A DNA stretch of 17,588 bases, from the IMG/VR virus record IMGVR_UViG_2734482774_000007, positions 1 through 17,588 of that record; one strand, written 5' to 3'. The position numbers were made by a program, and so were the translations under genes. The stretch is from a virus (lineage: Duplodnaviria; Heunggongvirae; Uroviricota; Caudoviricetes). Under the pieces are notes generated by a model that saw only the letters and a list, made by a program, of their open reading frames with translations, was not told the DNA's origin and ran no database searches. Below are positions 1-16,600 of the stretch, one piece after another (positions within the stretch are counted from its first letter, which is position 1; every line of letters begins with the position of its first letter).

Positions 1-1260
1 ATGAAGCTCAACGCCAGACAGGTCGAGACCGCAAAGCCAAAAGACAAAACCTATAAAATGGCCGATGGCGGAGGTCTGTATCTTGAGGTTTCGGCCAAGG
101 GTTCTAAATACTGGCGCATGAAATACAGACGCCCCTCAGACAAAAAAGAGGATCGCCTCGCTTTTGGTGTTTGGCCTACTGTGACGCTTGCTCAGGCAAG
201 AGCAAAGCGCGACGAAGCTAAAAAGCTTTTAGTGCAGGGCATTGATCCAAAAGCCGAACAGAAAGAAGCTCAGGCCGAGAATTCAGGGGCATATACTTTC
301 GAAACCATTGCTCGTGAATGGCATGCCAGTAACAAGCGATGGAGTGAAGACCATCGATCGCGCGTTCTTCGCTATCTTGAGCTTTATATCTTCCCTCATA
401 TCGGTTCGTCCGACATTCGCCAGCTCAAAACCAGCCACCTATTAGCCCCGATTAAAAAAGTTGATGCCAGTGGTAAACACGACGTCGCTCAGCGCCTACA
501 ACAGCGCGTCACGGCCATTATGCGGTATGCGGTACAGAACGATTACATCGACTCAAATCCAGCAAGTGACATGGCCGGTGCGTTATCGACAACCAAAGCA
601 CGACACTATCCAGCTTTACCCTCTAACCGTTTCCCTGAGTTTCTTGCACGTCTTGCTGCATATCGTGGCCGTTTAATGACACGGATTGCAGTCGAGCTTT
701 CCTTACTAACTTTTGTGCGTTCCAGTGAGTTGCGTTTCGCTCGCTGGGATGAATTCGACTTCGATAAATCTCTTTGGCGTATACCGGCAAAACGAGAAGA
801 AATTAAAGGTGTCCGTTACTCGTACCGTGGGATGAAGATGAAAGAGGAGCATATCGTTCCGCTTAGTCGGCAGGCGATGATTTTGTTAGAGCAGCTTAAG
901 CAGATTAGTGGTGATAAAGAGCTACTGTTTCCGGGAGATCATGACGCAACTAAAGTTATGAGTGAAAACACGGTTAACAGTGCTTTGCGCACAATGGGGT
1001 ATGACACAAAAACCGAAGTTTGCGGGCATGGATTCAGAACTATGGCGCGCGGTGCTTTGGGCGAATCAGGGTTGTGGAGTGATGACGCGATAGAACGTCA
1101 GCTAAGCCACTCTGAGCGTAATAGCGTTAGGGCTGCTTATATTCATACTTCAGAGCATTTGGATGAGCGTCGTTTAATGGTTCAGTGGTGGGCCGATTAT
1201 CTTGATGCTAACACTCAGGAATATATAACCCCCTACGACTTTGCAAAAAAAACTATCTAG
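1..1260 (+). CDS. intB: P4-family tyrosine integrase (site-specific recombinase)
   Basis: 419-aa ORF. N-terminal arm-binding region AKPKDKTYKMADGGGLYLEVSAKGSKYWRMKYR; catalytic region with VRSSELRFARW (Arg box), HGFRTMARG (H-x-x-R) and RAAYIHT (catalytic Tyr). ATG sits at nt 1, so the true start could lie upstream of the window. The symbol is inferred from leuX context and nanS at the far end. Confidence 0.85.
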   Translation: MKLNARQVETAKPKDKTYKMADGGGLYLEVSAKGSKYWRMKYRRPSDKKEDRLAFGVWPTVTLAQARAKRDEAKKLLVQGIDPKAEQKEAQAENSGAYTFETIAREWHASNKRWSEDHRSRVLRYLELYIFPHIGSSDIRQLKTSHLLAPIKKVDASGKHDVAQRLQQRVTAIMRYAVQNDYIDSNPASDMAGALSTTKARHYPALPSNRFPEFLARLAAYRGRLMTRIAVELSLLTFVRSSELRFARWDEFDFDKSLWRIPAKREEIKGVRYSYRGMKMKEEHIVPLSRQAMILLEQLKQISGDKELLFPGDHDATKVMSENTVNSALRTMGYDTKTEVCGHGFRTMARGALGESGLWSDDAIERQLSHSERNSVRAAYIHTSEHLDERRLMVQWWADYLDANTQEYITPYDFAKKTI

Positions 1261-1275
1261 CTTTAAAAATTTTAA

Positions 1276-1307
1276 AGTAGGGTCAAAGACCCTACTAATT
1301 ATTTTTT
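1276..1307. terminator. Bidirectional rho-independent terminator between convergent int and herA
   Basis: Perfect 9-bp stem agtagggtc / gaccctact (1276-1284 / 1288-1296) with loop aaa, T-run aattatttttt on the + strand and ttaaaattttt on the - strand. Confidence 0.7.
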
Positions 1308-3020
1308 CCATATATTGCAATAGCCTGGAGAATCAGATTCTGGTGGATATATTGGCTTATCTATCTGGATGGTCATAGGAATAGGGAAGTCAACCCCTAC
1401 AAGAGCAACTTCACCTTGTTTGAGACTTGGTAGAAAAGATGCTGCAGATTTATCAATTTCACCGCATGCACGCTCAACGACTTCTCGATCTCGGTCGTTT
1501 GTTAAGCGATGAACCAATAAGGTTCCAATTTGACTAAGCACACCTTCAGTGATATCTCTGGGTCTTTGAGTTGTTAAGCATATATTAAGGCCATATTTCC
1601 TGCCTTCTTTTGCAATCATCTCAAAAGCGTCAAGTTTAATTGCATGATCTTCAGAACCAACCCGTTTGCCAAGGAAGTTATGGGCTTCATCAACAATAAC
1701 TAACAGCGGTCTTGTTCTGAATTTTTCAAGCCTAGCTAAAGTTAAAAGTTTTCTGCCGATTACATTGGCTAAAATTTCTCTAGCATAAAACTCATAGCTA
1801 ACATCACTTAGGCATAACCTTAGGACTCGTTTATCAGATTGTAAAAAAGTTTCTAATATTTCACCTAGTGTGGATATATCCTCGTTACTATTAAAAACAG
1901 ACCTTAACGAGTTGGCATACGTTACTGCTTGAATTCTGGTTAACAAAGATGAGCAATAGCTTAAGTCTTGAGTTGCAGCGTTTCCCCAAGTATTATCTCC
2001 ATTATCGTAACAACATTCTTGTACAATCTGTTTTATAAGTTTTGTTATATCAAATGGTTGTGATGGATTATCAACAAGTTTAGAGTTGTCTCCAGTATTC
2101 ATTGCGCGTCGATAATCTGTTTTAGGTTGATTGATTTTTTTTAAAATACCATCGGTTGCTATTCTAGGTTCTAAAGCTACTAATCTAAGGCTTTTTATCG
2201 CTTCTTTTAGCTTAGGACCCTGTACTTTTCCAGAAGGATCGAACATGGCAATAAAGTCTGACTCAACAAAGTCGGTAGGTGGAATTCTAAATTCTAAAGA
2301 ATTTATGTTTTTATTTATTGGGGCACCTAAATGGTAATGTAAACAATAATCAGATTTAAACGATCTATACTCACTGGTTGCATCAATTATTATAGTTTTA
2401 GAGTTTTCGTAATTCGAACACTCTTCAATTAACTTGGAAGTTGTCCAACTTTTTCCACCGCCTGTAGCTCCTAAGATAGCACAATGACGACCGAAGAGTT
2501 TATCAGGTTCAACAGTTACTATACTTGTTGCCCCTCCAGATATAATGCCTAATACAATACCTATTCTTTCTTCCTCGTTATCTTTAATTCCTTTATTAAT
2601 TAATTCTGGTATTAAAGAAATAAAATCTAAGGGAGCAGAATAAACTCGATCTCCTAATCGAGGATATGATTTGATTCCTGAATCAATTCTAAAATTTGAA
2701 GGATCAATAGTTCCAAGAAGTTGTATAATGCCGATAGCATCAACTTTGAAGTTTCCTTGAGACCCGACAGATATTTCACCTCTATCTCGCTCTGGTAATT
2801 TAACCTCTATTAAACGGCCAAGAACAATAGATTGTTGTCCTTCTATTAATAATATTTCACCAACTTCTCCTTTTCCATATCTACAACCTTCTATATATGT
2901 TCCGCTGAGTTCCCCTGCATAGATTAAATTTGCTCTAACTGTTTGAGCAAAAATTGATGAGACTACTCCAACCTTAAGGTCGCCCCTCAAAATACCAAGC
3001 TGTAGTGTTGTATTAATCAT
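1299..3020 (-). CDS. herA: HerA-like ATPase, second gene of a SIR2-HerA anti-phage module
   Basis: 573-aa ORF. Walker A GATGGGKSWT and Walker B LLVIVDEAHNF. Start ATG overlaps the upstream gene's stop (ATGA at 3017-3020). Markedly AT-rich codon usage compared with flanking genes. Confidence 0.8.
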   Translation of the reverse strand: MINTTLQLGILRGDLKVGVVSSIFAQTVRANLIYAGELSGTYIEGCRYGKGEVGEILLIEGQQSIVLGRLIEVKLPERDRGEISVGSQGNFKVDAIGIIQLLGTIDPSNFRIDSGIKSYPRLGDRVYSAPLDFISLIPELINKGIKDNEEERIGIVLGIISGGATSIVTVEPDKLFGRHCAILGATGGGKSWTTSKLIEECSNYENSKTIIIDATSEYRSFKSDYCLHYHLGAPINKNINSLEFRIPPTDFVESDFIAMFDPSGKVQGPKLKEAIKSLRLVALEPRIATDGILKKINQPKTDYRRAMNTGDNSKLVDNPSQPFDITKLIKQIVQECCYDNGDNTWGNAATQDLSYCSSLLTRIQAVTYANSLRSVFNSNEDISTLGEILETFLQSDKRVLRLCLSDVSYEFYAREILANVIGRKLLTLARLEKFRTRPLLVIVDEAHNFLGKRVGSEDHAIKLDAFEMIAKEGRKYGLNICLTTQRPRDITEGVLSQIGTLLVHRLTNDRDREVVERACGEIDKSAASFLPSLKQGEVALVGVDFPIPMTIQIDKPIYPPESDSPGYCNIWKK

Positions 3021-4315
3021 AATTGATTGTTAACTCCTACTTGTTTTATTACCTTAGCCAACTGTTCTGCTGGGGTTAATGCTTTAAGATTGGGAACTAA
3101 TTTAACAAAATCACTGAAAGATGCATTTATGAAGTGAATGTCATAACCTGATAGTGAGAGTTGTTTTAGTAAATCCCAATATTTACTAGAACCGTCCCCC
3201 CCTTTATTCCGAATATGAGTTGCACATTTGAAATCTACTATAATCAACCTCATGCTTGGATTGGATTTTATTGCTGAGTAAATTGGTTCAGAAAGATGGT
3301 CATCATTGAAACCAAATCCAGATATAACTAAACAGTTATTTCTTTTTCTCAAGAAATCTAACAATCTTGAAAGTAATTCTAAGTGAGGTTGAATAAAGGC
3401 TTGCTGATATTTACCTTTCGCTGGATATATTAGACATGCGTTTGTTGCTGTTGGTTGGCTGGATTCATATATTTGCCCATCCTTTCTTATCCAACTTACA
3501 GAACCGTGGAGTTTAAATAACTGGAATACGCCCTCTACAAACTCATGCTCGTTTTCATCTCTTTTAACAACATCGTAGTTAAAATATTTACCATCGAATC
3601 TGCGAACTCCTGTATATGAAAGACCATCAACTACCATCATTCCTAATTCAGAAGCAGCTGTTTCAAAGGCTAAATCATAGTTAGTTGTGAAAACTTTTAG
3701 TCTAGGATCTCTGACTCTCCTCCTCCCCATTTTTTGTAATAAATTGATGTAAGCTGAAAGATCACAGTTGCCATCATCAATAAATGAGCGACATTTGTCT
3801 AAAATAATTGTTTTAACTTTATTTAAAAAATTCAACACTTCTTCATCATCATGAAATGCTAAATATGCTTCACAATTAGAAAGAAAGTGTTCTATGTTAG
3901 GATACTCTCGCTCTTTATATTTTACTTTATCACAAACAATTTGAGCATCAGGTTTTAATTGACCATCCTCGTTTATAGAAGATTCACTCCACATTGCACA
4001 CTTCCAGAGATCCCACATGCTTGGTCCTCCAACGTCCCCAAGCGAAGTACCACTCCCAGCGAAGAATGCAAGATTTGGGAATTGTAATGATTTTAGTAAT
4101 AGTTCGTTTATATATGCCTGATTGTCTTTCAACTCCTTCTTTTCACCATCAGTAAGAGATTGTGCTGGAGAAATAGAATCTCCTGACTCTTCTAAACTTT
4201 CATTCGTTATGTAGTCTCGCCAATAAATAAACGATTTACTATCTAATGCTTTCCAGTCGTTACTACCGGGTTTTAAAAATGAGATGTATCCGTCCGGATT
4301 TGTAGTCATAATCAT
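3017..4315 (-). CDS. sir2: SIR2-family (SIR2_2-type) putative NADase, first gene of the SIR2-HerA module
   Basis: 432-aa ORF. Rossmann-like FFAGSGTS, signature VFTTNYDLAFE (catalytic Asn) and FKLHGSVSW (catalytic His). Translationally coupled to herA. AT-rich. Confidence 0.8.
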   Translation of the reverse strand: MIMTTNPDGYISFLKPGSNDWKALDSKSFIYWRDYITNESLEESGDSISPAQSLTDGEKKELKDNQAYINELLLKSLQFPNLAFFAGSGTSLGDVGGPSMWDLWKCAMWSESSINEDGQLKPDAQIVCDKVKYKEREYPNIEHFLSNCEAYLAFHDDEEVLNFLNKVKTIILDKCRSFIDDGNCDLSAYINLLQKMGRRRVRDPRLKVFTTNYDLAFETAASELGMMVVDGLSYTGVRRFDGKYFNYDVVKRDENEHEFVEGVFQLFKLHGSVSWIRKDGQIYESSQPTATNACLIYPAKGKYQQAFIQPHLELLSRLLDFLRKRNNCLVISGFGFNDDHLSEPIYSAIKSNPSMRLIIVDFKCATHIRNKGGDGSSKYWDLLKQLSLSGYDIHFINASFSDFVKLVPNLKALTPAEQLAKVIKQVGVNNQL

Positions 4316-4872
4316 TATCCATTGATGTCATTAAGAGTTTGTTCCCAATAATTTACTACACCACGGCTGGAAGAAAAAGTAATCACAATCACTATCTTTG
4401 ACTACAGTGCGCACAATTATCTTCCCGCCACGCTTGCCCACCTTTAATACACGTGCATGTTTGATCTGAGGTCTTACGATATCTTGTACAGGTAGAGGTT
4501 ACAAGAGTGAGAACCATGCTCACTAAGGATGACAAATCTATAAATATTACCCGTAGCGCCGCTCAGTTTACGTGTGCTGCATCGATACACTGCAGTTCTT
4601 GAATCATTGCGGAGATTTCAGCAACTGCCAGCCAGTATCTCGTCAATCATTGTCACCGCCTGCGCGGCTGAGTTTGCTATTTTCTCCCTTAGCGCGAGCA
4701 GCCCCGCCCGCCTGCCCGCTTCGCTTAACAGACTGGTTTTCATGCACCCCGTAAATCGTCTCAGAAGCCACCACACAAGGGCTTTCGCGTCAAAAATGGC
4801 GCATGAGACTCATGCGTTTTCATGCGCCATAGATATGCACTCATACGCTCTCAGGCCAGCCAGGGAAAAGGC

Positions 4873-4899
4873 GTAAAAAATCCCGGTACTGGACCGGGA
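4873..4899 (-). terminator. Rho-independent terminator downstream of the sid-psu-ogr operon
   Basis: 7-bp stem tcccggt / accggga (4881-4887 / 4893-4899) with loop actgg, followed on the - strand by TTTTTTAC (4873-4880). Lies 22 nt past the ogr-like stop. Confidence 0.65.
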
Positions 4900-4921
4900 C
4901 TTCGTGGTCGTATTTTGCTAA

Positions 4922-5194
4922 TCAGACAGGAATTTGCTGACGGTTTGACAGCTTTGACGCGGAGCCATAGCGATTGAGAGTTTGCTGTTGTTTTTCCGGT
5001 ATTTTTGCTTTGTCTGATTCCTGTTCATTGCACCGAGGCTTCATAATTATCGTATCCACGCTTTCCAGTGCGGTAAATGTGCAGGAACATTCCAGATTCT
5101 GGCACTGATACCATGAGCGTTTAACCGACGGAGCTTCATAGGCGCTGGTTCTGGCGTGAGCGACCGCGCCACATTCAGGACACTTCAGGGCCAT
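4922..5194 (-). CDS. Ogr/Delta-family zinc-finger late transcription activator
   Basis: MALKCPECGAVAHARTSAYEAPSVKRSWYQCQNLECSCTFTALESV matches the P2 Ogr C-x2-C...C-x4-C zinc-finger pattern. ATG at 5192-5194 is preceded by AAGGAG with a 9-nt spacer, 1 nt after the psu stop. The ORF track's longer start at 5296 would overlap psu. Confidence 0.75.
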   Translation of the reverse strand: MALKCPECGAVAHARTSAYEAPSVKRSWYQCQNLECSCTFTALESVDTIIMKPRCNEQESDKAKIPEKQQQTLNRYGSASKLSNRQQIPV

Positions 5195-5195
5195 A

Positions 5196-5750
5196 TCAGC
5201 ACACTCCTTTTTCATTAAGTCGGTTAAGGCGGGCCAGGAAAACTTTATGTTGTGCCGGGGTGAAACTGGCTGAAGCATCAGCGCGCATTGATGCATCCAC
5301 CGTTAATCCGGTTTCGTCGATAATGCTCTTATATGCTGCTGAAATTACCGGAGTACGGACTTCCGTTTGTCGGGCTACAGCGGTTCGTAATATTTTCATT
5401 GCCGCCTCAAGCCCGTATGGTGCACAAAGAAAAGGAGCCAGAGCGTCAGTGAGTGCATCACCATGCTCGCTCATGAAGTTTTCAGTTGCGCTTGTAACAC
5501 AGCTTTCCAGCACAATCTGGTGAGCATAAAGACCATCCCGGGCGGCACAGTTAATCTGCCATTCGAGGAGTGCAAGACGCTCACGAAGATCCTCAAGTTG
5601 GCTGGCATATGCTGCGGGTTTTTCTTCAGTATCCAGCAAAGCAGCCAGACGAAGCTGGCTGGTACTTTGCACATTACGTAGTGTCAGCCAGCTTTTTATT
5701 GCCGCGCGGTAATCGTTGAGAGCTTCCTGAGTAATGGTTCCGGTATTCAT
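5196..5750 (-). CDS. psu: Psu-like polarity suppression protein
   Basis: 184 aa, close to P4 Psu size. Recalled similarity to P4 Psu (ALTDALAP..., ...FTPAQHKVF...). Start overlaps the sid-like stop (ATGA at 5747-5750). SD GAGAAGGA upstream. Confidence 0.7.
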   Translation of the reverse strand: MNTGTITQEALNDYRAAIKSWLTLRNVQSTSQLRLAALLDTEEKPAAYASQLEDLRERLALLEWQINCAARDGLYAHQIVLESCVTSATENFMSEHGDALTDALAPFLCAPYGLEAAMKILRTAVARQTEVRTPVISAAYKSIIDETGLTVDASMRADASASFTPAQHKVFLARLNRLNEKGVC

Positions 5751-6499
5751 TCCTTCTCGCCCCCTTTAGCCATGTCACGCTGTTTAAGCATCCGGGAACG
5801 TGCTGCAGGGCTGGGTGATTGTCTGGCATCCTGTATGGCTTTATCGTCCGCATAAATGCTGATCCCCGGCAGGGCAATATCATCCGTTGAAGATACGTTA
5901 CAGAACAGTGCCGGAGTGGTGAGTTGCTCGCTGATAAATTGCTTCAGCACACTTTCGGGGTCGTTTACGGTATGAACTACACCGATAACAGAAGATGCGC
6001 TTCGGCCCAGAGTCATTTTCAGCAGTCCAAGGATCTGAATAAGTTTCTGGCCGTGTTCCTTCATAAACTCATTCCAGAGCCACACTGCATGAGTTTCAAT
6101 CAGGTGATTATGTTCGCTGATGTAGCGGTTTGCAGCATCCGCAGTTTTCCATGGCAGGAATTCATTTTCTGCAGCCTGAGCAGCCAGCAAATCTTCGAAC
6201 TCATCTAGTGTTTCGCGTCCGAGGGCGATTTCTGCCCGCAGTTTTTTCATTCGTGGCGTCATATTCCCCTGATTCTCACGAAACAGGTTTCGCCATTCAT
6301 CATTAAGCGCCTGCGTCTCCGTTTTTGTATCTTCCTGACGTTTACGGATAGTTTCAGTCATTGCAGCAGCTTCGGTTTGTTTTCGCCGTTCTTCCTGCCA
6401 GACAGCTTTTGCTGCCTTAACTTTTTCCACCGCTTCGCGAATTTTCGGCGGGAGGGTGGGGGTAATGTTTGCATCAGAGATCTGGTTAACAGTTGTCAT
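5747..6499 (-). CDS. Sid-like capsid size-determination (external scaffold) protein, putative
   Basis: 250 aa from the ATG at 6499, which follows a GGAG SD; the track's start at 6532 is a TTG. Helical, charged sequence; position immediately upstream of psu as in the P4 late operon. Assignment is positional and compositional only. Confidence 0.5.
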   Translation of the reverse strand: MTTVNQISDANITPTLPPKIREAVEKVKAAKAVWQEERRKQTEAAAMTETIRKRQEDTKTETQALNDEWRNLFRENQGNMTPRMKKLRAEIALGRETLDEFEDLLAAQAAENEFLPWKTADAANRYISEHNHLIETHAVWLWNEFMKEHGQKLIQILGLLKMTLGRSASSVIGVVHTVNDPESVLKQFISEQLTTPALFCNVSSTDDIALPGISIYADDKAIQDARQSPSPAARSRMLKQRDMAKGGEKE

Positions 6500-6571
6500 G
6501 GCTGCTCCGGTAGTGTTTTGTTGTTGTGTCAATTGTGCCGGGGTCCATACAAGCGCACTACCGAGGAGGAT

Positions 6572-6589
6572 TGTGTCAGTGACTGAACA
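6572..6589 (-). promoter_or_regulatory. Candidate Ogr/Delta-dependent late promoter element (TGT-N12-ACA) upstream of sid
   Basis: TGTgtcagtgactgaACA, centred about 80 bp upstream of the sid ATG. This spacing suits a site centred near -55 with a short leader, as in P2/P4 late promoters. Confidence 0.45.
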
Positions 6590-6665
6590 ATGACCTTGTT
6601 CTGGCTAGCCAGAGAAAGGTGTCATGTCTGATCTACACGCTTCCTTTAATACATACTATTCACCA

Positions 6666-6757
6666 CTGTTCACTTCAATAAAAATATAGTAAATACATGT
6701 GGTTAAGTGGTGTAGTGTTTTAATTAAAGTGATCATCTACTGTTCATGACTGTTCAC
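6666..6757 (+). repeat. Three direct copies of CTGTTCA(C/T) in the divergent control region; the last two overlap a second TGT-N12-ACA (6741-6758)
   Basis: ctgttcac at 6666-6673, ctgttcat at 6740-6747, ctgttcac at 6750-6757. TGTtcatgactgttcACA at 6741-6758. Confidence 0.35.
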
Positions 6758-7404
6758 AGAGATAAAATTAAACATATATTTCTTTTTCATATAAGTCGCG
6801 ATATTTATTTCAGTTTATTACTGGATCTTTTCTCCTCACCAATATTCACCAGTATTCAATACATATTCTATGTAAAGAATAAAAGATGTCTTATATCTGT
6901 TTGATAATTGAACATTCAACCTCCCTGCACTCAGTTGCATTTCAGGAAAATATTCATAAAAATGAATTTGTCTGATGTTCATTAAACACATTCGGATACA
7001 TGCGGAAGTAAGATGGTAATTTAATTTCTTTAATCATCGGATTTATTGATACATATGGTGAGCTGTTTATTTTTGGCCGTTTTTGGCTCTTTTATTAATC
7101 AGGTGTTGTCTTAGTGCTTATGATGTAAAGCCCTGAATGATATGGGCTGGTTCAGATTTGAGCTGTGATCCTGCCTAGTGTAATAGACTTTTTTATTATT
7201 GATGCTCCTTATTATATTCCATAAAGGAATTGTTTGTTTTTGTTCGTTTCATACGGTTTTTAGCTGTTTTATTTTTTGAGAAATCAACATTTCACACAAA
7301 ATAAATAAAGCATGCGCGAGCCGCTTATATAAACATAATAAGGAGCTACCTGAATCCGCATGGAATTGCCCGGACTGTTGTAAACATATTAGAGAGGTAG
7401 CCAG

Positions 7405-7665
7405 ATGAATAGTATTTCCGTTTCCACCCCGGCACCAGCTGCTCCGGTGCTCCCGGTTCCGGCTCAGCAGGAGCGCTTCATACGATTACCTGAAGTGATG
7501 CACCTTTGCGGGCTATCCCGTTCAACCATCTACGACCTTATCAGCCGCGATGCCTTCCCGCAGCAGATATCCCTGGGTGGAAAAAATGTGGCCTGGGTAC
7601 AGTCGGAGGTCAGTGCATGGATGGCGGCGCGAATTGCTGCCCGCGAGCAAGGAGGCCATGCGTGA
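7405..7665 (+). CDS. alpA: AlpA/Vis-family phage transcriptional regulator (excisionase-like HTH)
   Basis: 86 aa. [47 protein letters not shown] fits the AlpA family HTH pattern. SD GAGAGG 7 nt upstream. Sits where P4 carries vis. Confidence 0.8.
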
Positions 7666-7759
7666 AACTTGCTTTGCAGTCTCATCTCCTTTTTTCTGGC
7701 TTGCGTCCTGATATCTTTTCCAGGTATAGTTTTCCCGCTGCCGCAAAATCGGCTGCCGG

Positions 7760-8007
7760 GCGTAGGAACCCGAGTTACTTATTGGCGACACCAGACGCGC
7801 CGTGCGTCTTTTTTTACGTCGTTGCTCAGGCACACCCATTTTTCGGGCTGCGGTGCTTATACCTTAGCCCCTTTCAGATAATGGTGGTCCGGGCGGGGCA
7901 GCCTTCGGGCTGGCCGGTTTCCAATAAGGCCGGTATTCCTACCCCCGTTCGGGTCACCACCCATGAGCGTAGGAACTCCGGTGGTGGCATTTACCGCTAC
8001 TTATTGG
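7760..8007 (+). promoter_or_regulatory. P4-type RNA immunity region: seqA-like (7760-7785), seqB/CI-like (7921-7942), seqC-like (7967-8007)
   Basis: A and C share the identical 10-mers gcgtaggaac and tacttattgg. B (ccaataaggccggtattcctac) carries the reverse complements ccaataag and ttcctac, so B can pair with either A or C. The region also holds several GC stems, including a UUCG-loop hairpin ggcagccttcgggctg near 7897. Confidence 0.45.
7793..7815 (+). terminator. Rho-independent terminator directly after the seqA-like element
   Basis: Stem agacgc / gcgtct (7793-7798 / 7804-7809) with loop gccgt, followed by a 7-T run to 7815. Confidence 0.6.
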
Positions 8008-8209
8008 AGGTTGCCCTTATGGCTACGATCCTCGCCCCGTCACATCCTCAATTTATATTTGTTTTTGCCGCCGTTCGTCGTGCAGAACGTAAACCACGTA
8101 TCAGTATGCTGCGTATCATCGCCAGCAATGAGCATCATGCACGTCTTTCACTGGTCCATGAGTATGTGCTTTGTCTTGCTGCTCGCCTGCCTGTCCGGGA
8201 GGTGATCTA

Positions 8210-8434
8210 ATGAATCACGCCGCAATCTCTTATGACGATATTCTCCGCCTGAAGCATCTTCGTAACGTGGGAGAGTTTGTCACTGGAATGGCTGTTCTTC
8301 AGGATTGCTACGAAAAACCTGCCAGTGCTCAATGTGAACAACTGGTTTCCCTGATTTATCTGATGACAGAGCAGCTTGATGGCGTGGTACAGCGTTGCCA
8401 GGATGACCTCATGAACATGGAGGTGGTGCAATGA
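8210..8434 (+). CDS. Hypothetical small protein in the satellite left operon
   Basis: 74 aa from the ATG at 8210, which follows SD GGGAGG with a 7-nt spacer. Stop overlaps the next ORF's start (ATGA at 8431-8434). Confidence 0.55.
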
Positions 8435-8754
8435 AATCACGCACTCTTTCCCTTTCACTTCGGGTAGCGTTGTATCGCCGCGCGGTAGCCTGCGCCTGGT
8501 TGAGTGCCTGCTATCAGCAAAACCGCCATCTGCAGCTCACTCTGGATGAAATTGAAACCGCTATTGCCCGTGAGCTTGAAGGATTTTATCTGCGACAGCA
8601 CGGGCAAACAAAAGGCATGGAAATCGCCTGCGCCCTGCTTTCAGACCTGATGGAATACGGCCCTCTAATGTCCTGTCCCGCACTCTCCCAGCTCGGAATA
8701 GCCGTAATGGATGAGTTATGCGTCCGTCACATCAAAAAGCCGGTTTTACACTGA
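8431..8754 (+). CDS. Hypothetical protein in the satellite left operon, immediately upstream of the primase
   Basis: 107-aa ORF, translationally coupled to the upstream ORF and ending 14 nt before the primase start. Confidence 0.55.
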
Positions 8755-8768
8755 GGGAGAACTGCGTC

Positions 8769-11102
8769 ATGTCAGGAATGAAAGTCAGTCAGGCCGTGAA
8801 GGCTGCCCGCGGTCACTGGGCTCAGATTCTGCCAGCGCTGGGCGTGAATATATTGAAAAATCGCCATCAGCCTTGCCCGGTCTGTGGCGGTAAAGATCGT
8901 TTTCGCTTCGACGATCAGGAAGGACGCGGAACATGGTTCTGCAATCAGTGCGGAGCCGGGGATGGTTTAGCGCTTGTCACCAGGGCACTGAATGTGGATA
9001 TCAGTGAAGCAGCTGACAGGATACATGGACTGACACATGATCTGTCTATAGTTAATTCCGAGGTCAGGACGTTAACCGCCGATACCGATAGCGGGAAAGA
9101 TGCAGCGGCAGCACTTGCCGCGCGACTGCTGCAAGCCTCGCGTGAATCTGCCGGAAACACTTATCTTACACATAAAGGTTTCCCGGAGCATATTTGCCAT
9201 GAGCTGACTTCAGCTCATAAGGCCGGTGGTGTGATGTTCCGCCCCGGTGATTTGATCGTCCCACTCTATAACGCTGACGGGGAGCTGGTGAATATTCAGC
9301 TTATCAGTGGCAATGGTAGCAAGTGTTTTCTTAAAGGAGGTCAGGTTAAGGAGGCCTATCATCTGATAGAAGGGGGCGGGAGTTCTGTAAGAAGGATTTG
9401 GATTGCGGAAGGTTACGCCACGGCGCTTACCATTCATTATTTGACAGGAGAAGCCGTCATGGTGGCATTTTCGTCGGTCAACTTTCTTTCTCTGAGCAGC
9501 GTTGCCCATAATAAGTATCCTGGATATCAGTTAATTATTGCAGCGGACCGCGATCTGAATGGTTCAGGCCAGAACAGGGCTGAAACTGCTGCAAAAGCGA
9601 GTCAGTGTGACATTGTGCTGCCACCGGTTTTTGGTGACTGGAATGATGCGCTTACCCAATACGGAGAGGAATCCACCCGGAAGGCAATTCTTGAGGCTTT
9701 GAAGCCACATAACGCCAGTCCTTTCGACACAATGAGTGAAGCAGAATTCACAGCGATGAGTGTCAGCGAAAAAGCTCAGAGGGTTCGGGAGCATTACAGG
9801 GATGCACTGGCGGTTGATCCGAACGGGCAGCTTTTATCCCGCTACGAGTCTGGAGCGTGGAAAGTTATTTCTCAGTCAGATTTTGCCCGAGATGTCGCAG
9901 CCCTTTTCCAGCGCCTCGGGGCACCGTTTTCCTCAGGAAAAATTGCCTCACTGGTGGAAACATTAAAGTTAATTGTTCCGCAGCAGCAAAATCCGTCACG
10001 TCATCTGATTGGTTTTCGTAATGGCGTTCTCGATACGCGAACAGGGCTTTTTAGTCCGCACTGTAAAGAGAACTGGCTGCGTACCCTGTGTGAAGTCGAT
10101 TTCACGCCACCGGTAAAGGGGGAAACGCTTGAAACTCATGCCCCGGCATTCTGGCGTTGGTTGGACCGGGCCGCCGGACACAAGCCAGCAAAACGCGACA
10201 TTATTCTTGCAGCGTTATTTATGGTGCTGGCGAACCGTTATGACTGGCAGCTCTTTCTGGAAGTGACTGGCCCTGGTGGAAGTGGCAAAAGTATTCTGGC
10301 TGAAATTGCGACCATGCTTGCTGGAGAGGATAACGCCACCTCTGCGACCATTGAAACGCTGGAGTCCCCGCGAGAACGTGCGGCTCTGATAGGTTTTTCT
10401 CTTATTCGCCTGCCTGATCAGGAGAAGTGGAGCGGCGACGGCGCCGGGCTTAAGGCTATAACTGGTGGCGATGCAGTATCTGTGGACCCCAAATATCAGA
10501 ATGCTTATTCAACACATATTCCGGCGGTTATCCTGGCCGTAAATAATAATCCTATGCGCTTCACTGATCGCAGTGGTGGTGTGTCCCGCAGGAGAGTTAT
10601 TCTGCATTTTCCTGAGCAGATAGCACCGGAAGAACGCGATCCGCAGTTGAAAGATAAAATTGCACGAGAACTGGCTGTGATTGTTCGTCAGCTCATGCAG
10701 CGTTTCAGCGATCCGATGAGCGCCAGAACATTGCTTCAGTCGCAGCAGAATTCTGATGAGGCTCTCACCATCAAGCGTGATGCTGATCCAGCATTTGATT
10801 TTTGTGGCTACCTTGAGGCATTACCTGACACCAACGGCATGTTTATGGGGAACGCCAATATTGTCCCGCGCCAGCCACGTACGTACCTTTACCATGCCTA
10901 TCTCGTATACATGGAGGCTAATGGCTTTAAAAATACCCTTAGCCTGACAATGTTTGGCAAAGGGCTACCAGTTATGCTGAAGGAATACGGGCTAAATTAT
11001 GAGAAGCGGCGAACTAATCAGGGAATGCAGACTAACCTCACTTTAAAAGAGGAAAGTAATGCAGACTGGCTTCCCAAGTGTGATGAGCTAACAATCAAAT
11101 AA
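8769..11102 (+). CDS. P4 alpha-type primase-helicase
   Basis: 777 aa from the ATG at 8769 (SD GAGGGAGA 9 nt upstream); the track's 8718 start is non-ATG. Zinc-binding primase motif CPVCGGKDRFRFDD...CNQCG; Walker A GPGGSGKS in the C-terminal helicase part. Length equals that recalled for P4 alpha. Confidence 0.9.
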   Translation: MSGMKVSQAVKAARGHWAQILPALGVNILKNRHQPCPVCGGKDRFRFDDQEGRGTWFCNQCGAGDGLALVTRALNVDISEAADRIHGLTHDLSIVNSEVRTLTADTDSGKDAAAALAARLLQASRESAGNTYLTHKGFPEHICHELTSAHKAGGVMFRPGDLIVPLYNADGELVNIQLISGNGSKCFLKGGQVKEAYHLIEGGGSSVRRIWIAEGYATALTIHYLTGEAVMVAFSSVNFLSLSSVAHNKYPGYQLIIAADRDLNGSGQNRAETAAKASQCDIVLPPVFGDWNDALTQYGEESTRKAILEALKPHNASPFDTMSEAEFTAMSVSEKAQRVREHYRDALAVDPNGQLLSRYESGAWKVISQSDFARDVAALFQRLGAPFSSGKIASLVETLKLIVPQQQNPSRHLIGFRNGVLDTRTGLFSPHCKENWLRTLCEVDFTPPVKGETLETHAPAFWRWLDRAAGHKPAKRDIILAALFMVLANRYDWQLFLEVTGPGGSGKSILAEIATMLAGEDNATSATIETLESPRERAALIGFSLIRLPDQEKWSGDGAGLKAITGGDAVSVDPKYQNAYSTHIPAVILAVNNNPMRFTDRSGGVSRRRVILHFPEQIAPEERDPQLKDKIARELAVIVRQLMQRFSDPMSARTLLQSQQNSDEALTIKRDADPAFDFCGYLEALPDTNGMFMGNANIVPRQPRTYLYHAYLVYMEANGFKNTLSLTMFGKGLPVMLKEYGLNYEKRRTNQGMQTNLTLKEESNADWLPKCDELTIK

Positions 11103-11110
11103 TTACAACT

Positions 11111-11137
11111 AACCCGGCTGATGCCGGGTTTCTTATT
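11111..11137 (+). terminator. Rho-independent terminator after the primase gene
   Basis: 8-bp stem aacccggc / gccgggtt with loop tgat, followed by tcttatt. Confidence 0.6.
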
Positions 11138-11453
11138 GGAAACGTACGAATGTAGAGATAGCAGTTCACTCTTCACCTAACTGTTAATACATAACCAATT
11201 GATATATAAATTAAAAGTTGCAGAGTGAATAGTGTGCATGGTTTTGCGAAAAAAAAGTATTTTTTGTTGAGTCAAGTCCCGGTTTGGATCCGTTTAACGG
11301 AACCTAACTGGATTGACTATTTCTTCGATAATTTTTGGATAAATAATCAACAAAAATCAAAATGTGAACAGCGAATGGAGGGGGCACAAAAGGGGGCATA
11401 ATTGAATTAATTATTAATAAAATCCATTTTTTACAACAATTTAAATGAATATG

Positions 11454-11473
11454 CGAGTCCGGCCTTCGCACCA
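11454..11473 (+). repeat. attR: direct repeat of the 3' end of tRNA-Leu (leuX)
   Basis: cgagtccggccttcgcacca resembles the recalled leuX 3' end (T-loop end, T-stem, acceptor stem, CCA) with one G missing. Upstream sequence is not tRNA-like, so only the 3' core is duplicated. Confidence 0.6.
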
Positions 11474-11489
11474 CACCGTATGCAAATCG

Positions 11490-11513
11490 AGCCGCTCAAG
11501 AGCGGCTTTTTTT
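11490..11513 (+). terminator. Rho-independent terminator following the tRNA-3'-end repeat (displaced native tRNA terminator)
   Basis: Stem agccgctc / gagcggct with a short loop, followed by a 7-T run. Confidence 0.6.
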
Positions 11514-11697
11514 GTGTCTGAAATCCGTTAGTTACCTATCTTTCTCGCTATTTTAACTCTCTCAGGGCTAACCAATTCCAACCCATCGCAAACGAAAAAT
11601 GTTGGTACAGGCGTTGGTATTTTCGGTTCGACATTAATTTGTATTAGCTCAGTCCTGATCTGACAGCTATCTGCCAGATCAGGTTCGGATTAATACA

Positions 11698-12548
11698 TTA
11701 TATCTGCCCGCCTACACCTTTAAACTTCTCAATAAACGCGACGATCTTCTGGAAAACCGTCTGTTTTTTCGTCTTATATTGCGGATTTAACGGACTGAGT
11801 TTTGGCAATGTCTCGTTTAATTCCGTGCCATTTTCGGTGGCGTATTCGCGTTTTAAAGACGTGCGAATATAGCGTTTCGCCGCCTCTTCATTGAGATTTT
11901 CTTCTTTGATCAAGGCTTCTGCTTCACGTTGCTGTTCGCGTTGAGCAAAGGTAAAAAACGCGTCAATGATGCTGGCTTTATCCGGCAAATCATCCAGGTT
12001 CGTTTGCTGAATAAAATCGACCACCAGACCTTCTTTGGCACGGTTACCAAGGCTCGAACGAATTAAGCGCTTGACCTCTTCGGTCATTTCGCCCTTACCT
12101 TTGTTTTGTCTGTTGTGTTCGAAAATCAGTCCAAGGATATAATCCAGGTTTATTTCCTGAGACTTCAGCAAATCGACCTCAAAAACCACGTCATCCCAGT
12201 CGGTGGTTGATTTTTCTTTTTTGTCAGCTTCTTTCTCACGGCGCTGCCAGTCACGAATATCGTTATAGGCTGAACGATAATCCTGAATCTTGCGATCAGC
12301 AGGGAGACGAATTATTTGCAATTCAGCGAGCTTTTCATCATCCACATAATGTTCTGCTTTGAATTTTTCTACTGCAACAGGATCACTAAGATCGATTTGT
12401 TGCAGGGCTTTCAGCGTGGCAAATTCATCATAGTTTTGCAGGATGTTCTCGGCACGCAGGTATTCACCAAACAGTTTTACGAAGTCTTTCTTCTCTTTTT
12501 CACTTTCAATATTGGCAGGGTCAGGGAACCGTTGTTCCAGTTCTGAAA
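11698..12548 (-). pseudogene. Type I restriction enzyme R subunit (HsdR) C-terminal fragment
   Basis: The frame is open from about 12545 to the stop at 11698 (about 283 codons) with no plausible ATG/RBS at its 5' end. Helical sequence ([10 protein letters not shown]..., [43 protein letters not shown]) resembles the conserved HsdR C-terminal domain as recalled. No helicase or nuclease motifs are present. Confidence 0.5.
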
Positions 12549-12803
12549 CTAGATGAAGTAGCCTTTGGTTTTGATGGCATCGTCTTTAATGTCATCAGTT
12601 ATTACGCTGTCATCCAGTTTCGCATAACAGATACTGTCATCACCGGCTTCAATATAGCTGGAAAAATTTTCGCTGATAAAACGGTAGAAAAGCGCGCCCA
12701 GAACGTATTGCTTAAAGTCCCATCCATCGACCGAACCTCTGACATCGTTAGCAATTTGCCAGATCTGGCGATGAAGCTCCGCGCGCTGCTGAAGACTGGT
12801 CAT
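12549..12803 (-). pseudogene. Type I R-M methyltransferase (HsdM) N-terminal fragment, truncated after 84 codons
   Basis: LQQRAELHRQIWQIANDVRGSVDGWDFKQYVLGALFYRFISENF is a typical HsdM N-terminal domain signature. Good RBS (AAGGA, 6-nt spacer) at the ATG at 12803. The frame ends in TAG and continues in another frame into the HsdR-like sequence, with no methyltransferase motifs. Confidence 0.65.
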
Positions 12804-13109: not shown

Positions 13110-13943
13110 ATGCAAACAGAAGCTGAAGTCTTAACCGATCATAACGAACTAATTTGCTCGACCAGTATTGAGCGTATCGTCACAGGACGTGATAGTGCAC
13201 TGAACCAGATAGCGGCGTTAATCCAAAAGCTTGATGATATCTCCAGCCTGACATCCAGTATTGGCGGTGATGTGGCTGGAACCTGGGCAATGCGTAATGG
13301 ATATGCCTTTGATTGCTGGCTGATGCAGCCAACCGACAAAGCGATGCCGGTGATCACCCGAAATATCGATCGCAGTATCTGGCGCGATCTCATGCTGAAG
13401 TCCGGGATGTTGACTCTGATGGATGCCGAAGCCCGCAGTCAGTGGGCAAAGAACCTGGAGGAGGGCGATCTCCCGGCGATTAGCGAAGCCAACATCCTGA
13501 GTACCTTTGAACAACTTCACCACAATAAGCAGGACGTTTTCGAACGTGGGATTATCAATGTATTTAAGGGATTAAGCTGGGACTACAAAACCAATAATCC
13601 CTGTTATTTCGGTAAGAAGATTATCGTTAACAATCTGGTGAAGCATGACAGATGGGGCTACAGCCTGAACTGGGGCTGGCGGCGAGATCAGCTTGCCGAT
13701 CTGGAACGGATGTTCTATCTGCTGGATGGGAAGACCATTCCCGATAACCGGCATGATGTTGCGATTCGGTTTATGGACTTCGTTAGTGCTCACCCGCATG
13801 AACAGGTATTTGATGACGATTTATTTGTCATCCGCTATTACCAGAAAGGCAGTGGGCATATCACTTTCAAGCGACTGGATCTGGTGGATAAGATGAATGA
13901 TATCGTGGCGAAGCACTTTCCGTCAGCGTTATCAGCAAAATGA
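13110..13943 (+). CDS. Hypothetical protein (277 aa) immediately upstream of the AbiE pair
   Basis: Long ORF with ordinary codon usage and no motif I can assign by eye. Ends 70 bp before the AbiEi-like start on the same strand. Confidence 0.6.
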   Translation: MQTEAEVLTDHNELICSTSIERIVTGRDSALNQIAALIQKLDDISSLTSSIGGDVAGTWAMRNGYAFDCWLMQPTDKAMPVITRNIDRSIWRDLMLKSGMLTLMDAEARSQWAKNLEEGDLPAISEANILSTFEQLHHNKQDVFERGIINVFKGLSWDYKTNNPCYFGKKIIVNNLVKHDRWGYSLNWGWRRDQLADLERMFYLLDGKTIPDNRHDVAIRFMDFVSAHPHEQVFDDDLFVIRYYQKGSGHITFKRLDLVDKMNDIVAKHFPSALSAK

Positions 13944-14012
13944 ATGTCGTATGTTTGCTATCTAAAATGTCGTATTTTTGCTACTCTTTATGCAATGACT
14001 CTGGAGGCGAAT

Positions 14013-14408
14013 ATGACGATAAAAGCACGCATTCAGTCACGACTGAAACGTTCTAAACGTTACGTATTCACTCGTGACGACTTTAAAGATATTGCAGGCT
14101 ACGATCAGGTTGGTCGGGTATTGCGCGAGCTTGTCAGGGAAGGGCAACTGTTGAAGGTTGGTTATGGCGTGTATACCAAAGCACGGCGGAACGGTATTAC
14201 AGGCAAGGTAATGCCAGCGGCTCCCGGAGGCTCTTCAGCGGTGATTGTCGAAACGCTGGAACGCCTGAAAGTACGCTATCGTTTTGCTGGCGCAACGCAG
14301 GCATACAATAGCGGTACTTCTACGCAGATCCCAGCTTCACCCGAGATAAAAACCCCCCGGCGTTTTAAACGCGTATTATCTGTAGGGAACAGCAGATTAA
14401 ATGGATGA
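14013..14408 (+). CDS. AbiEi-family antitoxin / transcriptional regulator (type IV TA, abortive infection)
   Basis: 131 aa from the ATG at 14013 (SD GGAGG, 5-nt spacer). N-terminal RYVFTRDDFKDIAGYDQVGRVLRELVREGQLLKVGYGVYTKA fits the AbiEi winged-helix pattern. Stop overlaps the AbiEii start by 8 nt. Confidence 0.7.
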   Translation: MTIKARIQSRLKRSKRYVFTRDDFKDIAGYDQVGRVLRELVREGQLLKVGYGVYTKARRNGITGKVMPAAPGGSSAVIVETLERLKVRYRFAGATQAYNSGTSTQIPASPEIKTPRRFKRVLSVGNSRLNG

Positions 14409-15348
14409 TTTAACCACTCTTTTTTCTGAAGTGGCTGACGCGCTTGGTATTGAGTCTGTCGCAATTGTGGAAAAAGATCACTATATCGTTGAGCTTTTGC
14501 AATTGCTTAAACCTCTGGTGTTCGATACTCATCAATTGGTATTTGCCGGAGGAACCGCTCTGGCAAAATCAGGTGTCGCACTTAATCGCATGTCGGAAGA
14601 TGTGGATATCAAACTGGTGCCTAAGGATGCATTTCAGGCACTTTCCCGCACTCAGCGAAAAAATACCCGTAAAGAAATTGTTCAGGCAGTTTCCAGTGCA
14701 ATAGCTTCATCGGGTGTGTTCAATTTTGATGATGATTACCCAAAAGTGACGCGGGATGAATATCGTTATAATGACATACCTGTTCGTTATCCACAGCGAG
14801 TAGTGCAGGCACCTTGTTTGCGTCCTTTTATCCGGCTGGAATTGATGGAAGCGAAGTTACTGGAGCCTTCTGAATTACGGGATATTCATTCACTGGTAAC
14901 AGGGATCACGGGAAAAGCGGCTATTGTTTCAGCGTTTCCATGCGCAACTATCATTAGCTCACAGGCAGAAAAGCTGGTGGCGATGTTACGTCGTACTGCG
15001 GCAGTTGTGCGAGATGTTGAGCGATTTGATGATGCATCGCTGGTACGTCATATCTACGATACAAACTGTATTGTTGAGACGAGTCATGTTGATATGAGTC
15101 TGCTCGTTGATTTTGTTCAACAAACTATTGAGCAGGACATTCAGCGTTACGGCAACCAGTACCCGCAGTTTTGCGCGTCTCCAGTTGATGAGCTAAAAAT
15201 GGGACTGGATGAGTTGGCGAACAATCCTCTCTACGAGATGCGCTATCAGCAGTTTGTTTCGCCAATGGTGTATGGAGAGCGAAAGATCACATGGGATGAG
15301 GCTTACTCCAGGTTTAGGAGCTTAGCGCTAGCCATCCTGAATGCTTGA
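14401..15348 (+). CDS. AbiEii-family nucleotidyltransferase toxin (type IV TA, abortive infection)
   Basis: 315 aa. Nucleotidyltransferase motif LVFAGGTALAKSGVALNRMSEDVDIKL (GG...S-E-D-x-D) near the N-terminus. Confidence 0.8.
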   Translation: MDDLTTLFSEVADALGIESVAIVEKDHYIVELLQLLKPLVFDTHQLVFAGGTALAKSGVALNRMSEDVDIKLVPKDAFQALSRTQRKNTRKEIVQAVSSAIASSGVFNFDDDYPKVTRDEYRYNDIPVRYPQRVVQAPCLRPFIRLELMEAKLLEPSELRDIHSLVTGITGKAAIVSAFPCATIISSQAEKLVAMLRRTAAVVRDVERFDDASLVRHIYDTNCIVETSHVDMSLLVDFVQQTIEQDIQRYGNQYPQFCASPVDELKMGLDELANNPLYEMRYQQFVSPMVYGERKITWDEAYSRFRSLALAILNA

Positions 15349-15385
15349 TATGCAGCATTGTCTTTACTTGAAATTCTGAAATTCT

Positions 15386-15571
15386 CTAAACCATAGAGAT
15401 GATTTTTATGATCCAGTCTTTCTCTTGTTGAGATAGTTCCAGTTTGCTCACTCGTGTTAAGAAGGTATTGATCACCTGAACATCCGAATTGGTGAGCCTA
15501 TTTAATAGAGCGGGTGGTATACCTTTACTAACAATCGCTTTGCGGTGACTTTCGTAGTTTTTATTACTCAT
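15386..15571 (-). CDS. Small hypothetical protein (61 aa)
   Basis: ATG at 15569-15571 preceded by GAGGA with a 6-nt spacer. AT-rich. No recognisable motif. Confidence 0.4.
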   Translation of the reverse strand: MSNKNYESHRKAIVSKGIPPALLNRLTNSDVQVINTFLTRVSKLELSQQEKDWIIKIISMV

Positions 15572-15636
15572 TGTTGATCCTCAAATATCATTGTATGGCG
15601 GCATTGATCGTTTCCAGCAACCTTTACTTACTCACT

Positions 15637-15813
15637 TCAAACTGCATCCTCGTAGACTGTTCCACTACAATAATCGAAAAGGCGTGGATGTCCATTCAGG
15701 TATCCCGCTAATACGTATAGCAATAACAATGGTTTATGCGGTGCGCGCTGTTCACCCTTATGCCAGATTTTTATATTGGCAATTGCCTGCTGTAGCGATT
15801 TACTGGAAGCCAT
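15637..15813 (-). CDS. Small hypothetical protein (about 58 aa from the internal ATG)
   Basis: The track ORF starts at a TTG (15870). The internal ATG at 15811-15813 (MASSKSLQQ...) is preceded by AGGGA with a 5-nt spacer. Could be a fragment. Confidence 0.3.
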   Translation of the reverse strand: MASSKSLQQAIANIKIWHKGEQRAPHKPLLLLYVLAGYLNGHPRLFDYCSGTVYEDAV

Positions 15814-15949
15814 TGATATCCCTGGCAGTGAAATAATTGCGATCATGCTCGCAAATTTTCTGCTGTTCAAGCCTGCAAGTGAAGATATATTACTTTGATC
15901 TCATTTGTTTTTTTGCTGCTTGTTCTGAGAACGTATAAGGACATTCTCT

Positions 15950-16600
15950 ATGAATAAACTCCCCGATCATCTTCCGCGGCGGTATATCATCGAAGCTATT
16001 CATTTATGGGATGCGGGAGAAACTCATCAGTTCCAGCCTGCACGGTTGTATGAAATTGAATATCATGGCCGACGTTACCCCTCGAAGGCGATTGCTGGCA
16101 TCGCAGCGACATTGATGACGGGGACGCAATTTACCCCTGCGGATTTCACCGGCGGAATAAAATCTAAATGTGTCAAGCTACTCATAGAGCAGGGATTTCA
16201 TATTCATCAGGATAAAGCCGCTGCGGCTCCCATAGCCGACGTTCTGTTCCCGGATGAGCTGCCGTCGCAGGGGACCTACGTTGAAGGTGCGGCGATAAAG
16301 GTGACAGTAAACCGCTATGAACGCGATAAAAAGGCCCGAGATAAAGCGGTCGAACATCATGGATGCCAATGCAACGTATGCGGCGTTGATCTGGTGAAGA
16401 TCTATGGTGATATCGCTGAAGGCTTTATCCATGTGCATCACCTGGTGCCGCTTTCAGCCATTAAAGAGGATTACCAGCTGGATCCAGTTAATGATTTGCT
16501 TCCTGTGTGCCCTAATTGCCATGCGATGCTGCACCGACGCAAACCACCGTTTACGCCGGAGCAGTTAAAAGCGCTAATGGATGCGAATAAATCAAATTAA
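15950..16600 (+). CDS. HNH endonuclease family protein with an uncharacterised N-terminal domain
   Basis: 216 aa. C-terminal HNH/zinc-binding motif CQCNVCG...HVHHLVPLS...NDLLPVCPNCHAMLH. SD AAGGA upstream. Stop is 7 bp from the convergent nanS stop. Confidence 0.8.
   Translation: MNKLPDHLPRRYIIEAIHLWDAGETHQFQPARLYEIEYHGRRYPSKAIAGIAATLMTGTQFTPADFTGGIKSKCVKLLIEQGFHIHQDKAAAAPIADVLFPDELPSQGTYVEGAAIKVTVNRYERDKKARDKAVEHHGCQCNVCGVDLVKIYGDIAEGFIHVHHLVPLSAIKEDYQLDPVNDLLPVCPNCHAMLHRRKPPFTPEQLKALMDANKSN

Follow-up and report, generated by a model that had tools for sequence, protein, structure and literature searches.

MITEs of bacteria, such as the Correia elements of Neisseria and the enterobacterial ERIC/IRU sequences, are short non-coding elements with two terminal inverted repeats (TIRs) that lie in intergenic DNA and can fold into a long RNA hairpin. 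For the IS481 family of insertion sequences (IS), TIRs that end in TGT...ACA are a family trait (PMC10045372). We found no specific description in the literature of an IS481-derived MITE, of a corresponding mini-element family or of the TIR sequence described below (ISfinder was outside this comparison). The window analyzed here, i.e., the whole 17,588-nt stretch of viral DNA, carries a 13-bp palindrome directly downstream of a type IC hsdR fragment, and we consider it highly probable (roughly 85%) that this palindrome is formed by the inner boxes of the two TIRs of a 58-bp, transposase-less IS481-family derivative (11640-11697). Like the Correia and ERIC/IRU elements, the 58-bp element is short, non-coding and built of two TIRs, occupies an intergenic 3' position and can form an RNA hairpin; however, it is much shorter than these MITEs, is present as a single copy at one locus in E. 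coli, and shows neither sequence similarity to them nor an Rfam match. The main value of this finding is one of annotation: a stretch that is unannotated in RefSeq can be explained as IS481-family debris. The coordinates of the element and of its surroundings are collected in Table 1.

Table 1. Features of the window around the 58-bp element, and related elements in other taxa
Feature	Position or locus	Strand	Sequence or basis
P4-like satellite prophage	1-11454		Integrase, HerA/SIR2 pair, psu/sid homologues, C4/isrK RNAs, alpha-type primase
Duplicate of the tRNA-Leu (leuX) 3' end, attachment-site repeat of the satellite	11455-11475	+	Alignment to intact leuX of A35 and K-12
leuX-downstream segment: leuX terminator (11489-11508), then remnant of a P4-type integrase leader	11476-11639	+	
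Left terminal inverted repeat (IRR-like)	11640-11666		TGTATTAGCTCAGTCCTGATCTGACAG; matches the right-end repeat of the intact IS copy L020
13-bp palindrome: two conserved TIR inner boxes plus 4-nt spacer remnant	11654-11683		CCTGATCTGACAG ctat CTGCCAGATCAGG
Residual spacer CTAT, remainder of a 23-nt spacer	11667-11670		Comparison with plasmid hsdR alleles
Right terminal inverted repeat (IRL-like)	11671-11697		Reverse complement TGTATTAATCCGAACCTGATCTGGCAG; matches IS end repeats
Type IC (EcoR124-family) hsdR 3' fragment	11698-12551	-	Stop codon 11698-11700
IS481-type mini-elements of 70-77 bp, other Proteobacteria	L014, L018, L028, L050, L052, L061, L063		

The palindrome is the inner half of a longer inverted repeat

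The first-pass annotation had reported a near-perfect 13-bp inverted repeat with one mismatch and a 4-nt loop just downstream of the hsdR fragment, and both the repeat and its position were confirmed. The two 13-nt arms (11654-11666 and 11671-11683) are complementary at 12 of 13 positions around the 4-nt loop, and the TAA stop codon of the adjacent ORF (11698-12345, minus strand; Pfam EcoR124_C, E = 1.4e-52) abuts the outer end of the right arm. No other inverted repeat with at least 12/13 matches and a loop of 3-8 nt was found by a scan of the window, and in 300 dinucleotide-preserving shuffles of the window comparable repeats occurred at a mean of 0.087 per window, with 20 of the 300 shuffles containing any. 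The sole mismatch is A:C on the plus strand and becomes a G:U wobble on the minus strand; on that strand, folding energies of -22.6 kcal/mol (z = -6.5) for the 38-nt core and of -28.3 kcal/mol for the 78-nt segment were obtained, as compared with -16.9 kcal/mol (z = -3.8) for the core on the plus strand. A repeat finder showed, however, that the repeat reported previously continues outward on both sides and forms only the inner half of an imperfect one with arms of 27 nt each (11640-11666 and 11671-11697) and 74% complementarity; both arms start with TGTATTA and end with TGATCTG(A/G)CAG.

The earlier remark that no T-run adjoins the palindrome on either strand, and that it does not look like an intrinsic terminator, was upheld. 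The palindrome resembles Rho-independent terminators in being a stable stem-loop directly after a stop codon, but it lacks a U-tract on either strand and its stem is only moderately GC-rich; a terminator scan called the leuX terminator at 11489-11508 and made no call at the palindrome, and this identity was rejected. Origin from a tRNA or attachment site was also rejected, as a search of the whole window by ARAGORN did not reveal a complete tRNA and the palindrome lies apart from the leuX repeat. Similarly, the region 11400-11800 had no Rfam match at the gathering threshold, the only matches (C4 and isrK) being far away.

Both arms match the ends of an IS481-family insertion sequence

A sensitive sequence search of 5426 E. 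coli genomes with positions 11610-11700 recovered, besides the full stretch, many partial matches (30/32) on plasmids and chromosomes that covered 11640-11671 only. Three of these were inspected, and each lay exactly at the end of a gene or pseudogene annotated as 'IS481 family transposase'. The corresponding unnamed IS of E. coli is 1.2 kb long (e.g., NZ_CP148401.1, 986472-987671), and an intact copy (L020) encodes a 347-aa transposase, WP_024236841.1, ends in TGT...ACA and is flanked by the 7-bp target duplication CATTAAA. This transposase scores 292.6 bits against the NCBIfam model NF033577 for IS481 (cutoff 224) and has the Pfam domains HTH_29 and rve_3. The two ends of the IS, TGTATTAGCTCAGACCTGATCTGACAG (right end, IRR) and TGTATTAGTCGCGACTTGATCTGACAC (left end, IRL), follow the pattern TGTATTAG-(8 variable nt)-(C/T)TGATCTGACA.

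The left arm of the window element agrees with the transposase-distal right-end repeat of this IS at 26 of 27 positions, whereas the right arm agrees with the left-end repeat at 20/27 and with the right-end repeat at 21/27. The right arm has the same TGTATTA terminus and TGATCTG.CA box as the IS ends, and it is also found beside plasmid hsdR alleles. No closer parent IS for the right arm, which shows 74% identity to the known E. coli IS ends, was found in E. coli. The window element and the 1.2-kb IS thus share TGT...ACA termini (TGT at 11640-11642 and ACA at 11695-11697), TIRs of 27 nt with an outer TGTATTA block and an inner TGATCTGACA block, and spacer homology that runs through 59 nt at 83% identity (below). 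The window element differs from the IS in its length of only 58 bp without coding capacity, in its more divergent right arm, in a spacer of 4 rather than 23 nt, and in the absence of a transposase (tblastn with the transposase found no homologue in the window) and of a target duplication.

The first-pass annotation had named, as evidence against a role at this locus, the possibility that the palindrome is a common chromosomal repeat unrelated to it. This is essentially what we found: the arm occurs at the ends of IS481-family copies in numerous chromosomes and plasmids of E. coli, at sites without any link to R-M.

The inner box as a putative transposase recognition site

Across all relatives collected (below), the TIR consensus reads TGTATTAG.....AC.TGATCTGACA and covers exactly the arms of the palindrome, which identifies the 13-bp arm reported earlier as the conserved inner box of a TIR. 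Since this box is kept at both ends of full-length relatives from several proteobacterial classes, it is probably the part that the transposase binds. The earlier suggestion of a protein-binding site therefore fits the origin of the element, with the binding itself deduced from this conservation, and the best-supported reading is that the arms are former, possibly still competent, transposase recognition sites. Each inner box also contains a GATC (Dam) site (11657-11660 and 11677-11680), and the GATC is kept in every relative, including taxa where Dam methylation is not expected. Consequently, recognition by the transposase is a more likely reason for its conservation than control by methylation.

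Alternatively, the palindrome might be an operator for a regulator encoded by the host or by the R-M system, e.g., a protein that controls the expression of restriction, or a Dam-dependent switch. In favor of this hypothesis, the 13-bp site is symmetric, has a spacer of 4 nt and contains one GATC in each arm. The site, however, lies downstream of the gene and not at a promoter, no regulator gene is associated with it, the same box is found at the ends of IS copies in taxa and settings that have no connection with R-M, and the 4-nt spacing is peculiar to one lineage, whereas relatives have 17-23 nt. We consider this hypothesis very improbable. The palindrome, as an ordinary mobile-element relic, can be dropped as a candidate regulatory site of the restriction system.

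The element joins two unrelated segments

Both edges of the 58-bp element are homology breakpoints. On the right, hsdR alleles that lack the element (L008-L010) align with the window from 11699 onward only and diverge at 11697/11698. On the left, positions 11454-11631 are 76% identical to the leuX-intB intergenic region of K-12, an alignment that ends ~25 nt before the intB ATG, and homology to the leuX-intB-like leader stops at ~11638, a limit that is uncertain by ~5 nt because K-12 also reads TTGTA there. The element therefore joins two unrelated segments: on one side the leader of an integrase gene that is itself missing, on the other an R-M cassette with its 3' end. Its position marks the true outer boundary of a mobile type IC R-M cassette at the leuX hotspot. 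A true pre-insertion (empty) site was not recovered, the DNA downstream of the element-free hsdR alleles being unrelated.

The same breakpoints bear on the explanations that the palindrome arose by chance or is the scar of the deletion that truncated hsdR. While about 7% of the shuffled windows do contain a comparable inverted repeat, neither explanation accounts for the extended arms, the identity to IS ends and the two coincident homology breakpoints. Further, strain A35 has an intact leuX followed by the same intergenic DNA with an identical palindrome and a complete hsdR-hsdS-hsdM. The hsdR fragment in the window remains collinear with its intact counterpart in A35 as far as 12551; there, at the junction 12550/12551, it meets hsdM sequence as the result of a deletion of ~4.96 kb relative to A35. 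Three-quarters of hsdR (the 5' part), the whole of hsdS and the greater part of hsdM are lost by this deletion, and a 5' piece of hsdM is now fused to the 3' fragment of hsdR. We therefore regard chance or a truncation scar as scarcely credible, and the IS481-family derivative as the preferred reading. Of the two alternatives offered previously, the deletion-junction relic has to be relocated: the truncation junction is ~870 bp away, but the 4-nt loop is itself most simply the product of a 19-nt deletion within a gutted IS (below). The link to the R-M system or to the truncation of hsdR that this suggestion implied does not hold, since an intact hsdR (L001) carries the identical palindrome and many type IC alleles (e.g., L008-L010) have none.

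The full stretch 11610-11700 was present in 319 of the 5426 E. coli genomes, always at this hsdR and in one copy per genome; dispersed copies were absent in E. coli, and in the metagenomes, too, the 58-bp form was invariably bordered by the same flanking sequence. A contig (L054) that seemed to offer a second genomic context was rejected, as the difference is due to an IS1 that has inserted 5 nt left of the element. With a single, hsdR-linked copy only, the window copy gives no sign of mobilization. In addition, no target-site duplication was found at the element: the 7-nt flanks read ATTAATT and TTATATC, where 7 bp would be expected for the subgroup that includes L020, L052 and L061. This absence is consistent with a later (IS-associated) rearrangement, both flanks being homology breakpoints to unrelated DNA, but it still counts against the IS481-family reading. 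Hence, while the lack of coding capacity and the size of 58 bp against a parent IS of 1.2 kb agree with a MITE, and TIRs homologous to those of an IS with a bona fide IS481-family transposase agree with a derivative of this family, we file the element as a MITE-like relic and not as an active MITE, because target duplication here and multiple copies in E. coli are both lacking.

In some copies, the left terminus of the 58-bp form is damaged, with TGT replaced by AGTTGG in HH194M (L011, 1582-1590) and in two metagenome contigs (L074 and L079), and by TTT in two further copies (L042 and L049). Such changes are consistent with the decay of a non-functional end.

Related mini-elements occur in other Proteobacteria

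Relatives were gathered by a pattern scan of representative genomes and metagenomes, which retrieved three kinds of sequence: the hsdR-linked 58-bp form, full-length IS copies, and elements of 70-77 bp that consist of a TIR, a spacer of 17-23 nt and a second TIR. The full-length relatives L013, L043, L064 and L076 encode transposases 67-72% identical to the one from E. coli. The 70-77-bp elements came from MAGs of Legionellaceae and Burkholderiaceae and from a marine sediment metagenome, and in metagenomic Desulfobulbus assemblies from the dolphin oral cavity many copies with different flanks were found, i.e., the multi-copy pattern of MITEs. Perfect 7-bp target duplications flank L052 (CATTATA) and L061 (GATAAAC). 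One 77-bp element (L050) has arms that match both ends of the E. coli IS and a spacer that agrees with the IS spacer at 21/23 positions, in flipped orientation.

The window element shares with these mini-elements the TIR consensus and the layout of two TIRs around a short spacer; however, they have spacers of 17-23 nt and several of them have 7-bp duplications or many copies, as opposed to 4 nt and neither of these features for the window copy. The TIR-spacer-TIR architecture is thus recurrent, and at least some of the relatives look mobile. Direct observations in support of the probable IS481-family origin of the element are thus the homology to IS ends, the two breakpoints, the longer plasmid allele (below) and the same architecture elsewhere with target duplications.

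Between the same two arms, the short spacer of the mini-elements was found in either orientation (L061 vs. L038, and L050 vs. L020), which suggests inversion by recombination between the inverted repeats. Two Desulfobulbus contigs (L015 and L048) carry a 196-bp derivative of the related IS with ~110 nt of the transposase 3' end retained between the TIRs, an internal deletion whose breakpoints were not those of the 8-nt repeat described below; such other breakpoints, therefore, also occur.

A possible route from insertion sequence to palindrome

The structure of the IS right end suggests how the element could have arisen. Next to the right-end repeat lies a spacer of 23 nt, and beyond it CTGTCAGAT, which repeats the inner box in inverted orientation and overlaps the stop codon of the transposase. 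An 8-nt sequence, TGTCAGAT, is consequently present twice in direct orientation and brackets the whole transposase gene. A deletion between these two copies predicts a 77-bp IRR-23-IRL element; that is, in the first step of the proposed route the IS would have collapsed to two TIRs separated by 23 nt (~77 bp). In a second step, this mini-element would have come to lie directly downstream of a type IC hsdR stop codon, prior to the split between plasmid and chromosomal alleles, and in a third step the chromosomal lineage would have lost 19 nt between two TATCTGC repeats, leaving 4 nt between the inner boxes and creating the near-perfect 13-bp palindrome as the outcome.

The plasmid alleles carry a longer form. 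In two plasmid hsdR alleles (L006 and L007, ~90% identical), the sequence beside the stop codon reads ...TTGATCTGACAG-CTATCTGCAAATTGCACAGATAT-CTGCCAGATCTGGTTCAGATTAATACA, with a spacer (CTATCTGCAAATTGCACAGATAT) of 23 nt, equal in length to the spacer of the IS; the left arm of the plasmid copy has lost its outer 14 nt. Relative to this allele, 19 nt located between two TATCTGC direct repeats are absent from the window, and we infer a deletion in the window rather than an insertion in the plasmids because spacers of 17-23 nt are the norm in this family. When a 77-mer was rebuilt from the window and plasmid alleles, its positions 1-59 aligned at 83% identity (E = 5e-8) with the right end of the IS, comprising its repeat, spacer and inner box, on hundreds of plasmids. 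A complete 77-bp ancestor beside hsdR was not found in PLSDB.

It is tempting to generalize this route. An IS481 subgroup may repeatedly collapse through its 8-nt repeats into mini-elements of ~75 bp that are still mobilized, with the window copy being a decayed member that travels with type IC R-M cassettes and may serve as a 3' hairpin of the hsdR mRNA. We offer this proposal tentatively and at somewhat worse than even odds; its first part is based on the inverted inner-box copy just after the transposase stop codon, and continued mobilization on the 7-bp duplications and on the multi-copy expansions in the Desulfobulbus metagenome. If so, this IS481 subgroup would appear to be built to collapse into mini-elements that are among the shortest TIR elements, and synapsis by a transposase of two ends separated by only 20 nt would then need an explanation.

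Possible effect on the hsdR transcript

The IS481-family origin is compatible with the hypothesis that the element has since been co-opted as an RNA feature, the added claim being one of function only. Under this hypothesis, the element would form a stem in the hsdR 3' UTR that blocks 3' exonucleases or that pauses or terminates transcription before the convergent leuX. The minus-strand fold given above is in agreement with such a role, as the G:U pair makes the 13-bp stem perfect within a 27-bp imperfect stem in full and the element starts 1 nt after the hsdR stop codon. Its tie to this hsdR allele group is old, being common to the chromosomal and the plasmid alleles, and the few variants among ~40 copies all fall outside the 13-bp core. 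However, these variants are of only four kinds, for which the probability of all lying outside the core by chance is ~0.09, i.e., not significant, and they are too few to judge selection on the stem. Moreover, the arms of the plasmid alleles are unpaired at two more positions, and the loss of half of their left arm is uncompensated. Termination is further disfavored by the missing U-tract, most type IC hsdR alleles do without the element, and the hsdR in the window is a dead fragment. Hence, we regard co-option as unlikely and favor the reading of the element as an inert, non-autonomous IS481-family relic, whose present effect would be at most a stable 3' hairpin on the hsdR transcript.

A promoter-like match on the minus strand (11724-11697; TTTAAA, 16-nt spacer, TATAAT; 10/12) spans the end of hsdR, and its -10 hexamer extends into the first base of the right TIR. 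This match is probably due to chance, because the scan finds fewer such sites in the window than in shuffled sequence.

Genomic context of the element

Several other features of the window were noted. The leuX repeat that borders the satellite has one G fewer than the tRNA (CCTTC-GCACCA vs. CCTTCGGCACCA). Within the satellite, a HerA-like ATPase (573 aa; DUF87/HerA_C) and a SIR2_2-domain protein (432 aa) are encoded at 1299-4315 on the minus strand, adjoining the P4-type integrase (1-1260); together, they look like an anti-phage pair of the SIR2-HerA type that the P4-like satellite carries in its variable region. Upstream of the primase gene, at 7737-7964 on the plus strand, isrK (72 bits) and the C4 antisense RNA (83 bits) gave Rfam matches next to one another; this is presumably the immunity/CI-RNA region of the satellite. 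Finally, downstream of the dead R-M cassette, the genes at 13110-16600 encode a DUF4942 protein, an AbiEi/AbiEii toxin-antitoxin pair (13944-15348) and an HNH endonuclease (15950-16600), and constitute a small defence island at leuX.
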